Shown: piece by piece, positions 675 through 23,488 of the stretch
How positions within the stretch are numbered: the stretch's first letter is position 1
Layout: the number at the start of each line of letters is the position of its first letter
NCBI GenBank assembly: GCA_045617465.1
Contig: JAZLIQ010000003.1
Coordinates: 15,738-39,737 of the forward strand
From: Mycoplasmoidaceae bacterium
GTDB taxonomy: Bacteria > Bacillota_I > Bacilli_A > Mycoplasmatales > Mycoplasmoidaceae
Direction: 5' to 3'
Length of the DNA stretch: 24,000 bases
Notes under the pieces: generated by a model
The model's input: the letters and a program-made list of their open reading frames with translations, nothing else
Database searches by the model: none
What the model was told of the DNA's origin: nothing
Program-made: the position numbers and the translations under genes

Positions 675-797
675 AAGGAATTCCTTTCTTAATAATTATA
701 TACCTAATTCCCTTATAAATAACAATCTGATTTTTAATAAAATTGAAAAAATTTTATCATCGTTTTGTTTAGATTTCATCTACTTTTTAGAAGATTG

Positions 798-846
798 AAA
801 AAATTTTTTTTAAATTTTACAAATTTTTAGGTGAATAAGTATATGG
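798..846 (+). promoter_or_regulatory. Copy 1 of a 49-bp conserved upstream element (A/T tract + TTTTAGGTGAATAAGTATATGG core); candidate non-canonical promoter
   Basis: Gap-free alignment to 22444-22492 gives 46/49 identities. The exact 22-nt core at 825-846 equals 22471-22492. Flanking sequence is unrelated. Confidence 0.6.
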
Positions 847-849
847 GAG

Positions 850-1086
850 GTGATTTATATAAAACTGTTGACTATTAATCAAAAGAAGCAAAAAGCAGGC
901 GGTTCATTTTATGCTATTGCTTTAGGTATTGGTATTCTTGTTTCAACTGTATCTAGTTTAGTAATGAATGCGATCAGCGCCTCAAGACCAGCTGATCAAC
1001 AAACTACAAACTATGGTATGAGAAGAACAACCATTATGCGTTTGTCACCAGTACCAACACGAAGTACGTTATCTATTATTGGCTAA
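850..1086 (+). CDS. Small hypothetical membrane protein (78 codons, GTG start uncertain), with one predicted TM helix FYAIALGIGILVSTVSSLVMNAI
   Basis: ORF directly downstream of the conserved element and of GGGAGG (845-850). It has a hydrophobic core segment. The start codon is ambiguous (GTG 850, ATT 853, TTG 868) and I recognise no homology. Confidence 0.4.
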   Translation: MIYIKLLTINQKKQKAGGSFYAIALGIGILVSTVSSLVMNAISASRPADQQTTNYGMRRTTIMRLSPVPTRSTLSIIG

Positions 1087-1171
1087 AGCTTAAAATTCAA
1101 CCCTCCATACAAATTTTCATTATATTGAGAAAGATAAAAGTAATATATTACTTTTATTTTTCTTTCTTGTG

Positions 1172-1180
1172 TGGTATAAT
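1172..1180 (+). promoter_or_regulatory. Extended -10 promoter (TGgTATAAT) of rpoD
   Basis: TG at 1172-1173 and TATAAT at 1175-1180, 24 nt upstream of the ATG at 1205. Confidence 0.6.
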
Positions 1181-1204
1181 AGTAAAACAAGGACTTATAT
1201 CCAC

Positions 1205-2572
1205 ATGGCTAAAAAACAAACTAAGAAAACAAAAGTAGCAAAGAAACGTGCTACTAAAAAAGTTGCTGTCAAAAAAACAGTTAAAAAAGTAAGTAAAAAG
1301 AAAGTAACTAAAAAAGTTGCTAAAGCTAAAAAAGCCCCTGCTAAACAAAAAATTATTAAAACAACAACCCCTAGAATTCAAATTCTAGAATCTTATTCTA
1401 AACATAAGATGATTTCTGAATTCGAATTTAAAGATATCGAAAAGAAAATCATCCAAACTGTTAAACTTAAAAAACGTAGTAGGAATGTTGTTGTATTAAA
1501 CAAGATCTTTTCTGAATTTGGTAGTTATGCTTTAACCAAAGAATTAACACAAAGATTATTTAATGACATTGTAAAACAAGGCATTACTATCAAAGGATTT
1601 GAAGGAAAGAAGTATTTCTCTCTTGCTGAAGCAGAGAAAATATTATCTACACAAAAATCTCAAAAAGTAAGTAAGATTACTACTCACGGTCCTAAAGGAA
1701 ATGACTATGATGGTGTTAAATCATTTTTAACAACGCTTGGTCAATCTAAAATGCTTTCTGCTGAACAAGAAGTAGAAATTGCAAAGATGTTAAACAGCAA
1801 AAATGAAATCGAAAGAAAATATGCTGTTGACCAATTAGTAACAAGTAACTTACGTCTTGTTACATCTATTGCTAAGAAATTCTTAAACCGTGGAATTGAA
1901 TTTGAAGATCTAATTCAAGAAGGAACAATGGGTTTAATGAAAGCCATTACTAAGTTTGATTACAAACTTGGACACAAGTTCTCAACTTATGCAACATGAT
2001 GAATTAGACAAGCTATCACGAGAGCAATTTCAGATCAATCAAAGATTATTAGAATTCCTGCTCACATGATTGAAACTATTCACCGTGTAACTAATGCAGA
2101 AAAAGAATTAACACAAAGGCTAGGTCGCCAACCAACTGTTGAAGAAATTACTGAAGAACTTGGTGGACAAGCTGCTGGATTTACAACAAGAAAAGTTGCT
2201 AACATTAAACGTATTCACATTGACCCAGTATCTCTAGATAAAACTGTTGGTTCTGATGAAGATAGTCAAATTTCAGACTTTGTTAAAGAAGATGTTTTAA
2301 CTTCCCCAGTTCAATATACAAAGGAGTCTTTATTAAAAGAAGACATTAACCAATTGTTCAAAGTTACTTTAACTCCTGAAGAAGAAAAGATTATGAGAAT
2401 GAGATATGGACTTGCTCCATATACATATGTTCACAGTTTGGATGAAGCTGCAGAGAAATTAAAAATTCCTCGTGAACAAGTCAGACAAATTGAAGCTAAA
2501 GCTACAAGAAAACTTAAACACCCATCAAAATCAAAGAAATTAAGAAGTTACATTTTAGATGAACAGAATTAA
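1205..2572 (+). CDS. rpoD: RNA polymerase primary sigma factor (sigma-70/SigA) with a lysine-rich N-terminal extension
   Basis: ORFs 1169-1999 and 2066-2572 are in the same frame and are joined by TGA TGA (1997-2002), giving [28 protein letters not shown] (regions 2.3-2.4). Also present are region 2.1-2.2 [38 protein letters not shown] and region 4 [29 protein letters not shown]. The ATG at 1205 lies downstream of the -10 box. Confidence 0.95.
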
Positions 2573-21826: not shown

Positions 21827-22459
21827 ATGTATATTGCTTTATTAGTTGGTTTGTGTTTACTTACAGCACTAGGGCTTGGGGCTAGTGCTTTAGTTTATTC
21901 TTCTTATATTTACTATAGAAATAGAGTATTTAGTAAAACTAAAGTTTCTGTATTATGAATTGTTGTTTGTGGTTTCATGGTCATTTTTATGACTATTGGT
22001 ATAGTTTGTTTTAGTCTGGATGCTAACACATGACATACTTGTTTAGAGTTTGATCCAGCTTACATAGCTTTATCTTCTGTTTGTTTATTTTTAAGCATAG
22101 CTTATCTTGTGTTTTTTAGTCTATTGCCTAAACTAACAAACAAAAATAAGATACCTTATGATCAAATGATGAAGGTTGATTATCAAACAAAGATAAAGCA
22201 AATTCAACAACGTTTGGGTGACCTTAACAAAGTTAAAAATGACTTATTAACCCACCATAAGCACTATTACCAAGACATGCTTTTTTATTACGAAAAGATT
22301 CTAAATCGGCTAAAAGATCAAAAAATTTCTTTGGTTGAAAAAATGGCAGATATTGTAACTTTCAATGATACGTTTACTCACTATTGATGCACTAAAACGA
22401 ATGATTACCAACTTCTATTAACATACCAGTTTTGTGAGGCTCTAAAAAAATTTTTTTAA
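21827..22459 (+). CDS. Hypothetical membrane protein (three predicted N-terminal TM helices plus a charged helical C-terminal half)
   Basis: The ATG lies 1 nt after the cinA stop. Translation MYIALLVGLCLLTALGLGASALVYSSYIYY...VLWIVVCGFMVIFMTIGIVCF...YIALSSVCLFLSIAYLVFFSLL is followed by ...KIKQIQQRLGDLNKVKNDLL.... ORF 22109-22387 is extended in frame on both sides across TGA. Confidence 0.7.
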
Positions 22460-22492
22460 ATTTTCCAAACTTTTAGGTGAATAAGTATATGG
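22444..22492 (+). promoter_or_regulatory. Copy 2 of the 49-bp conserved upstream element, immediately upstream of recA
   Basis: 46/49 identities to 798-846. The core TTTTAGGTGAATAAGTATATGG lies at 22471-22492, and the recA ATG is 16 nt downstream. The 5' A/T tract overlaps the last codons of the preceding ORF. Confidence 0.6.
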
Positions 22493-22507: not shown

Positions 22508-23488
22508 ATGCAAAATCAAAAATTATTTGAAGAAACTATAAAAGAACTAGAAACCCAATTCGGTAAGGGTTCTATTATTAGTTTAGATAACTCTAAAGCT
22601 ATAGCTTGTGAAGTTATCTCATCTGGAAGTATAAATTTAAATAAAGCTATAGGTGTAGGTGGTTATCCTAAAGGAAGAATCATTGAAATCTATGGTAATG
22701 AAAGTAGTGGTAAGACTACATTAGCATTACAAGCTGTTGCTAGCTGTCAAAAGGCAGGTGGCAAATGTGCTTATGTTGATGTAGAACATGCCTTAGACAA
22801 TAAATATTGTCTTGCTAATGGTGTTGACACTAAAAAACTATTATTAGCTCAGCCAGAAACTGGTGAACAATCTTTTGCTATTGTCGAAGCATTAATTAAA
22901 ACAGGAATGATTGATTTAATTATTGTTGACTCAGTAGCTGCCCTAGTTCCTGAAGCTGAACTAAATGGTGAATATGAAGACCAAAACATTGGTCTACATG
23001 CTAGACTGATGTCTAAAGGACTAAGAATCCTACAAACAGTAATGGCTAAATATAACACTACAGTTATCTTTATTAATCAAATTAGAGAAAAGGTTGGTAT
23101 TTTATTTGGTGATAACAAAACCACACCCGGTGGTTGAGCAATGAAGTTCTATTCTAGTTTAAGAATAGATTTGAAACGTATTGAAGCTTTAAAGAGCGGA
23201 ACAAACATTATTGGTATCCGTTCTTTAGCTAGAGTTGTCAAGAATAAAGTTGCACCACCAATGCAATCATGTTATCTTGATATCTACTTTAACAAAGGAT
23301 TTGATAATGTAGCAGAAATAATTGAAAATGCTATTGCAGCTAACATTATTCAAAAATCTGGATCATGATTTTATTTTGGTGAAACAAAACTTGCCCAAGG
23401 TAAGGAAGGAACAATAAAATTCCTAACTGACACTAAAAATAAAAAACTTTTTGGTGAAATAACGAAGTTAGTTTTAAAACCTCAATAG
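22508..23488 (+). CDS. recA: Recombinase RecA
   Basis: Motifs FGKGSII, Walker A GNESSGKTTLAL, AYVDVEHALD, IIVDSVAALVP and FINQIREKVG. Three fragments are joined by TGA (GGWAMKFYSS) to TAG at 23486-23488. Confidence 0.97.

Follow-up and report, generated by a model that had tools for sequence, protein, structure and literature searches.

The question raised by this locus is whether a small open reading frame next to the gene of the housekeeping sigma factor is a gene in its own right and, if so, to which regulatory circuit it belongs. The window, which is the whole stretch of 24,000 nucleotides that was analyzed, comes from the genome of a mollicute reading TGA as tryptophan (G000; 647 kb, 5 contigs, ~32% G+C). 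A preliminary description of the window had placed a frame of 78 codons (850-1086) between a SWIB-domain gene and rpoD, preceded by the motif GGGAGG and by an element that recurs at recA. The motif (845-850) and the open frame are present as described, and both flanking genes were confirmed by their domains (Table 1).

Table 1. Features of the window, genes found behind the promoter cassette and the candidate sigma factor gene. Positions without a prefix are those of the window; C and L numbers denote contigs and loci.
Feature	Position	Strand	Remark
SWIB-domain gene	423-674	minus	Pfam E 9e-26
Upstream module of the cassette, TTCATCTACTTTTTAGAAGATTG	775-797	+	kept in most of the 13 copies
Regulon promoter cassette, copy 1 (predicted)	798-846	+	A/T tract, then core TTTTAGGTGAATAAGTATATGG at 825-846
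Extended Shine-Dalgarno sequence GGGAGGTGAT	845-854	+	GGAGGTGA at equal distance in the 9 species with ATA or ATT start
rrlA-like CDS (cassette target)	859-1086	+	most likely ATA start; 75 codons + TAA
AT-rich hairpin with T run	1127-1164	+	palindrome at 1134-1157; from fold and conservation
rpoD extended -10, TGTGGTATAAT	1170-1180	+	from sequence
rpoD CDS	1205-2572	+	sigma-70 regions 1.2-4
Cassette, copy 2	22444-22492	+	directly upstream of recA
recA (cassette target)	22508-23488	+	Pfam RecA E 3e-109
ruvA-ruvB (cassette target)
Small gene, then recU (cassette target)
dprA-like gene (cassette target; tentative)	C1:61433-62173 (L021:1034-1774)		247 aa, upstream of a large gene
C39-peptidase ABC transporter, then small membrane protein (cassette target)	C3:203811-206052 (L026:3312-5553)	minus
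LRR lipoprotein (cassette target)	C4 near 89637	minus
343-aa gene, then DUF5452 gene (cassette target)
101-aa gene, then flavin-reductase-like gene (cassette target)
Five paralogous genes (cassette targets)	C1:60985, 84243, 113484, 113893; C3:206477	minus for C3:206477	~90-107 aa
Sigma-20 (MG428)-like gene (candidate)	C2:89695-90291 (L132:696-1292)	minus	199 residues, adjoins dnaN and dnaA

A six-frame search found the frame open in all 12 genomes of the same genus, with identities of 43-76%. These genomes belong to uncultured gut Mycoplasmoidaceae of horse and ruminant, for example Candidatus Hennigella equi and rumen MAGs named 'Ureaplasma sp.'. Interruption of the frame by stop codons in relatives, which the preliminary description had named as an argument against a gene, was thus not seen, and the comparison across genomes that it had proposed showed that the ORF itself is kept, with pairwise dN/dS ratios of 0.07-0.3 and synonymous sites near saturation. 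When 1.84 billion representative proteins were searched with a profile, only 23 matched, all of them full-length, 77-86 aa long and of the same layout. The small ORF is a genuine gene, conserved in the genus, which encodes a membrane protein of 75 residues. Its product contains one hydrophobic stretch (residues 17-35, mean Kyte-Doolittle value 2.04) with a net charge of +4 on either side, in agreement with the single hydrophobic helix and the basic C-terminus described earlier. Since basic residues flank the helix on both sides, the membrane topology is ambiguous. A Pfam scan of the protein returned no family.

As translation starts, GTG 850, ATT 853 and TTG 868 had been put forward. All three are in frame, but the best-supported codon, ATA 859, was not among them. 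The codon aligned with ATA 859 is ATG (MKKL...) in five distant species and ATA or ATT in nine closer ones, this species included, and in all nine it lies 8 nt after the Shine-Dalgarno sequence. Its offset from the cassette equals that of the ATG codons of other regulon genes. Based on this alignment, the Shine-Dalgarno spacing and the cassette offset, the coding sequence was set at 859-1086, with ATA 859 as the most likely start. The other candidates were rejected: GTG 850 lies inside the Shine-Dalgarno sequence, ATT 853 follows GGGAGG by only 2 nt, and TTG 868 is not conserved at this place in the aligned relatives. In general, an extended Shine-Dalgarno sequence pairs with the 3' end of 16S rRNA. 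The exact protein was not found in a collection of 15 billion sequences under any of three candidate starts, probably because gene callers missed the gene on account of its ATA start.

A well-known non-canonical start is the AUU codon of infC, which is sensed by IF3. The present gene shares with infC a conserved AUA/AUU start behind a strong Shine-Dalgarno sequence in a regulatory gene; the likeness is one of analogy only and does not imply a link to IF3, and five species of the genus use ATG. Two other genes behind the cassette, those of the C39 ABC transporter (C3:204172-206052, minus strand) and of the LRR lipoprotein (C4 near 89637, minus strand), likewise have no ATG at the usual cassette offset, with ATT and ATA, respectively, as their apparent starts. 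A preference for weak starts may hence be typical of the regulon.

The family to which the protein belongs was indicated by the NCBIfam model NF045747 ('MPN313 family'), which matches 12 of 12 genus orthologues at E values of 1e-6 to 1e-8. The scores (25.8-28.7 bits for this protein, up to ~35 bits in the genus) do not reach the equivalog cut-off of 100 bits, which is passed only by members from Mycoplasmoides. The same model detected one small ORF each in 58 of 121 Mycoplasmoidaceae genomes, while in a class-wide sample of 151 genomes, composed without close relatives, it matched this genome only. In M. genitalium the matched ORF occupies 266,087-266,356 on the minus strand, a short way downstream of the promoter coordinate that has been published for MG_220 (266,402). 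In M. pneumoniae, MG_220 corresponds to MPN313 (PMC4446450, table), and MG_220 is rrlA, annotated as 'sigma accessory protein' (PMC6105099, Table 1). When alignments were compared with hhalign, the genus group matched the MG_220/MPN313 group over its full length (97.9%, E 5e-13, 74 columns) and the group of other genera even more closely (99.4%, E 2e-21), with bridging comparisons at 99.4% and 99.1%.

The members of this family have a common layout. A Lys-rich leader, residues 1-15, ends in Gly-Gly (family pattern M-x-K-L-x4-K-K-x3-G-G) and is followed by a hydrophobic stretch of 22-25 residues, which corresponds to a helix of residues 16-40 here, by a polar linker and by the tail (Y/I)-x-R-(L/F/M)-(S/G)-x-x-P-x-(R/K)-S, which occurs in 49 of 52 distinct family sequences and reads MRLSPVPTRS in this protein (residues 59-68). 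These comparisons support the assignment of 859-1086 as a predicted genus orthologue of RrlA (MG_220/MPN313 family). The earlier reading of the small ORF as a candidate regulator, which had been drawn from its sharing an element with recA, gains support from this full-length homology to RrlA.

In M. genitalium, rrlA is the gene most strongly induced upon overexpression of sigma-20 (57-fold), and its deletion abolishes the cells that express sigma-20 and RecA (PMC6105099). Synthesis of RrlA and RrlB is confined to the rare cells in which sigma-20 is active; expression of sigma-20 and RecA requires both proteins, which seem to stabilise the sigma factor (PMC6105099). The protein described here shares with RrlA the 15-residue Lys-rich leader ending in Gly-Gly, the single hydrophobic helix and the tail R-(L/F)-(S/G)-x-x-P, and its gene is likewise the first behind a promoter of the type found at recA and ruvA; both organisms fall into the GTDB family Mycoplasmoidaceae. 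In contrast to RrlA/MPN313, with ~93-102 aa and an ATG start, it has 75 aa and an ATA start. It also differs from RrlA in having rpoD as a neighbour, unlike the MG_220 neighbourhood, and in the missing partner, as no homologue of rrlB was detected by phmmer. The authors of the M. genitalium study likened RrlA to Crl, the sigma-S-binding co-activator of E. coli and Salmonella (PMC6105099). Common to both would be a small protein that makes an alternative sigma factor more active once the latter has been synthesised, which for the protein described here is argued from homology; however, Crl is soluble and unrelated in sequence, whereas the RrlA family carries a hydrophobic helix.

The rrlA-like gene lies directly 5' of rpoD and in the same orientation in 11 of the 12 genus members, while the SWIB gene is its upstream neighbour in only two. 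Together with a frame that lacks an ATG start and a protein that is missing from the collection of 15 billion sequences under three starts, this position would also fit an untranslated frame, that is, a leader or upstream ORF which only modulates the expression of rpoD from the cassette. However, the conservation acts at the level of amino acids, as the dN/dS ratios indicate, and the homology is full-length to a protein family of which the M. genitalium representative has been observed in cells by means of a tag (PMC6105099). Moreover, the conserved hairpin and a promoter of rpoD's own, as judged from the extended -10, lie in between, no match to known RNA families was found with Rfam in 600-1300, and the folding of the transcript as a whole is ordinary (z = -0.45). 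We therefore consider a non-coding leader highly improbable. It may be added that, by its place beside rpoD in these 11 genomes, a gene for a helper of an alternative sigma factor is tightly linked to the gene of the housekeeping sigma factor (window 859-2572, loci L010-L020).

The element described as common to the small ORF and recA proved to be real and to extend well beyond these two genes. Within the window, the direct repeats 784-846 and 22430-22492 share 86% identity across 63 nt, and the second copy stops 15 nt 5' of recA. Genome-wide, the core TTTTAGGYGAATAAGTATATGG of this ~47-nt cassette was found in 13 copies at up to 3 mismatches, compared to none in a control with the reversed pattern. 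A position-weight scan of the genome gave 13 sites at 61-91 bits and none between 25 and 60 bits; the copy in front of the rrlA-like gene (775-846) ranks first with 90.7 bits. Every core is preceded by one A/T-rich block, AAAATATTTTTTAAATTTT, and only a few bases separate it from a downstream ribosome-binding site rich in purines, behind which an open frame lies. An upstream module with the consensus TTmATCnnnTTTTTAGAnGA, ~50 nt upstream of the core, precedes non-paralogous genes as well (the rrlA-like gene, the LRR lipoprotein gene, the 101-aa gene and ruvAB). The module at 775-797 may be a second binding site. Its part TTTTTAGAnGA recurs 40 nt downstream as TTTTTAGGTGA of the core.

The core sequence changes from species to species but is kept within each of them. 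The upstream regions of rrlA and recA carry one species-specific core in each of five genomes (G000, G011, G010, G002 and G008), and the variant of G002 was found five times in that genome. Such sharing within species combined with change between species is the pattern expected of a cis element that co-evolves with its trans factor. The sigma-20 promoter hexamers of M. genitalium, TTGTCA-N18/19-ATTWAT, are not matched by the cassette, whose best fit is TTTACA-N18-TATATG, and neither is the M. pneumoniae variant TTGGCR-N18/19-ATTYAT. The cassette nevertheless resembles the sigma-20 (MG428/MPN626) promoters in being specific to a regulon, in its short, fixed distance to the start codons (of recA, ruvA, the rrlA-like gene and the MG_390 homologue) and in the species-specific sequence, which differs in the same way between M. 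genitalium and M. pneumoniae (PMC4446450). It differs from them in its sequence, in the ~47-nt block with the upstream module and in the variable -35-like hexamer. The candidate -10 hexamers GTGAAT, AAGTAT and TATATG would give 5' leaders of ~15, 8 and 4 nt, respectively. In the sigma-20 promoters of M. genitalium, the -10 hexamer and the start codon are 15-17 nt apart (PMC4446450), and this analogy points to AAGTAT or TATATG, while the conserved Shine-Dalgarno sequence favours GTGAAT as the -10, with transcription starting farther upstream. By its sequence, the element in front of the rrlA-like gene is of the promoter type common to recA and ruvA.

Judged from the genes that follow its copies (Table 1), the cassette defines a predicted regulon of recombination and gene transfer. 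The dprA-like assignment is tentative, as the gene matches DprA models over residues 40-85 only and below the cut-offs; the large gene that follows is read from its N terminus as topA. The C39 ABC transporter matches NF045998 ('Mbov_0121 family') and Pfam C39 (E 3e-19), and its only match in M. genitalium, at 492,575-493,516 (minus strand), is MG_390, for which a sigma-20 promoter is known at 493,564 (PMC4446450). The next gene encodes a membrane protein of 122 aa that matches NF045999 ('MAG1140 family') at E 0.0015. This pair mirrors MG_390-MG_389, and the names of the models stem from ruminant mycoplasmas; on both grounds the transporter module seems widespread in mollicutes. Similarly, the DUF5452 gene follows a 343-aa gene here and a 347-aa gene in M. 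genitalium; by its position, the latter pair would correspond to the sigma-20-induced MG_285/MG_286. In common with the sigma-20 regulon, the genes behind the cassette thus include recA, ruvAB, rrlA, the MG_390/389 pair and a DUF5452 gene, whereas the dprA-like gene, recU and the five small paralogues are additional here. The five paralogues have N termini such as MASPSQEITKTEFKENYNVVK and show weak similarity to DUF16 only; homologues of them stand behind a species-specific cassette in G002 too.

A candidate for the factor that reads the cassette was found in the same genome. Searches of G000 with MG428 itself, Sigma70_r2, r4_2 and GerE returned no sigma-20 match. However, MG428 weakly matches proteins in four other members of the genus, and by this transitive route only, these proteins match an ORF at C2:89695-90291 with E values of 1e-18 to 1e-38. 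Its group aligns with the MG428/MPN626 group in hhalign (96.6%, E 6e-10) over regions 2 and 4, and the protein has a weak full-length match to TIGR02937. This ORF is a candidate sigma-20 (MG428-family) gene, and its divergent product probably reads the regulon. The gene has no cassette upstream. Following the example of M. genitalium, we infer that transcription from the cassette depends on this sigma factor and that the rrlA-like protein acts as its co-activator.

The strong conservation of the cassette also invites another explanation, namely a promoter for the housekeeping sigma factor, with TATAT as its -10, combined with a long operator at which a DNA-binding activator or repressor acts. 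In that case the MG428-like protein, or some other factor, would be a classical transcription factor, and the rrlA-like gene would still be a member of the regulon. In 13 copies, ~47 nt and the upstream module are kept, far beyond two hexamers; while the -35-like hexamer varies among the copies, there is no variation in ~22 nt around the putative -10, and a sigma factor by itself would not usually require so much conservation. In addition, TATATGG is the best-conserved part between species, the motif TTTTTAGRnGA occurs twice at a distance of 40 nt, and the only robust sigma likeness of the candidate runs via MG428, which also scores on HTH models of the LuxR type. MG428, however, has been characterised as a sigma factor with two-hexamer promoters of its own and mapped start sites (PMC4446450), the candidate aligns with it over regions 2 and 4 and thus beyond the HTH, and the cassette keeps a fixed short distance from the start codons as sigma-20 promoters do. 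An operator on a housekeeping promoter is therefore improbable; this explanation and the non-coding rpoD leader are the less likely of the rivals considered here.

Taken together, we consider it likely that the gene is an orthologue of rrlA within a cassette-driven sigma-20 regulon, with a positive loop, a weak start and a hairpin at its end. According to this model, the gene would be transcribed from the strongest of the 13 species-specific cassettes, and, in analogy to M. genitalium, its protein would be made only when the alternative sigma factor is active. The protein would then feed back positively by allowing the sigma factor to accumulate and act, thereby forming a feed-forward loop. 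The weak ATA, 8 nt behind a near-perfect Shine-Dalgarno sequence, could keep the basal output of this feedback component low, and the transcript would most likely end at the hairpin, ahead of the rpoD promoter.

The end of the leader suggests another mode of action for the RrlA family, which would leave the identity of the protein untouched. The protein may be a peptide with a double-glycine leader that is cut after Gly-Gly, so that a hydrophobic/basic peptide of 60 residues is exported by the C39 ABC transporter, which is co-regulated through the same cassette. The site of action of such a peptide would be the cell exterior or the membrane, with a role as pheromone, bacteriocin or fusion-type factor comparable to ComC/ComAB or CibAB in streptococcal competence. 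Residues 14-15 are GG; among 34 aligned family members, G is invariant at -1 and -2 is G in 30 and A or V in the others, and 21 further relatives have GG or AG at the end of the leader. The leader has 15 residues with L or I at -12, M at -15 and, in most family members, I, V or L at -4. The catalytic residues of the ComA peptidase domain (3K8U) are matched in the alignment by Gln, Cys, His and Asp of the transporter's C39 domain. Known double-glycine leaders carry hydrophobic residues at -4, -7, -12 and -15 and have their GG site 15-30 residues from the N terminus. In the RrlA family, by contrast, -7 is a near-invariant Lys, and -4 is Lys in this protein. Neither bacteriocin-leader nor ComC-type models of NCBIfam and Pfam matched at E values up to 10, and no C39 gene adjoins any of the ~50 loci of the rrlA family. 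In M. genitalium, MG_390 is annotated as sunT with a putative role in peptide secretion, yet its deletion does not change how many cells are RecA-positive (0.51% vs. 0.66%), while deletion of rrlA abolishes these cells (PMC6105099, Table 2). Processing by MG_390 is therefore not required for the known function of RrlA, and we regard the exported-peptide mechanism as unlikely.

The comparison with the competence circuit of streptococci bears on the same point. A predicted alternative-sigma regulon with roles in recombination and DNA uptake, comprising recA, dprA and a C39 ABC exporter, is shared with the ComX circuit, as is a leader ending in GG, and the core sequence GCGAATA or GTGAATA appears to resemble the cin-box of ComX, TACGAATA. 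In contrast to ComC/CibAB, there is no detectable sequence homology, and the leader found here lacks the hydrophobic residue at -7. A further difference from streptococcal competence is that mycoplasmas lack a cell wall, and genes of an uptake pilus were not seen here. If the leader were nevertheless used in this way, the rare, cell-specific activation of the regulon would be a circuit of peptide signalling or release similar to ComC/ComAB-ComX and not a purely intracellular loop that stabilises a sigma factor.

With the intracellular RrlA loop as the preferred model, these findings extend a system that has so far been described experimentally in M. genitalium only. A predicted RrlA orthologue, a sigma-20-like factor and a common cassette were all recovered from a gut genus of the Mycoplasmoidaceae that is uncultured. 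The sigma-20 recombination switch would accordingly seem to be ancestral in this family and able to include dprA and recU. The ~50 members that keep the GG leader, the hydrophobic helix and the RLSPxPSRS tail provide concrete residues to mutate. As the gene was missed in a very large protein collection, such helper genes may be under-annotated.

The region between the ORF and rpoD contains the palindrome that had been noted there, and the hairpin proved both real and conserved. The segment folds at -15.8 kcal/mol (z = -5.2), none of 200 shuffled sequences folded as well, and the stem is nearly invariant in eight species (L009-L016). Judged from fold and conservation, the rrlA-like gene probably has its terminator in this hairpin. 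The same description had seen a complement to the GGGAGG motif downstream of the ORF. The sequence CCCTCC is present at 1101-1106, but its pairing with GGGAGG is not conserved, since none of 11 relatives has the motif downstream, and the transcript folds no better than its shuffles; we thus rejected this pairing, which is probably due to chance. The palindrome itself, ATAAAAGTAATATATTACTTTTAT (1134-1157), is almost invariant in eight species despite saturated synonymous sites, and its centre lies ~41-42 nt before the expected start of rpoD. Its exact 20-mer is unique in the genome, and a palindromic near-copy of 18 nt occurs at C4:92198. The palindrome may serve as a protein-binding operator upstream of rpoD as well as a terminator.
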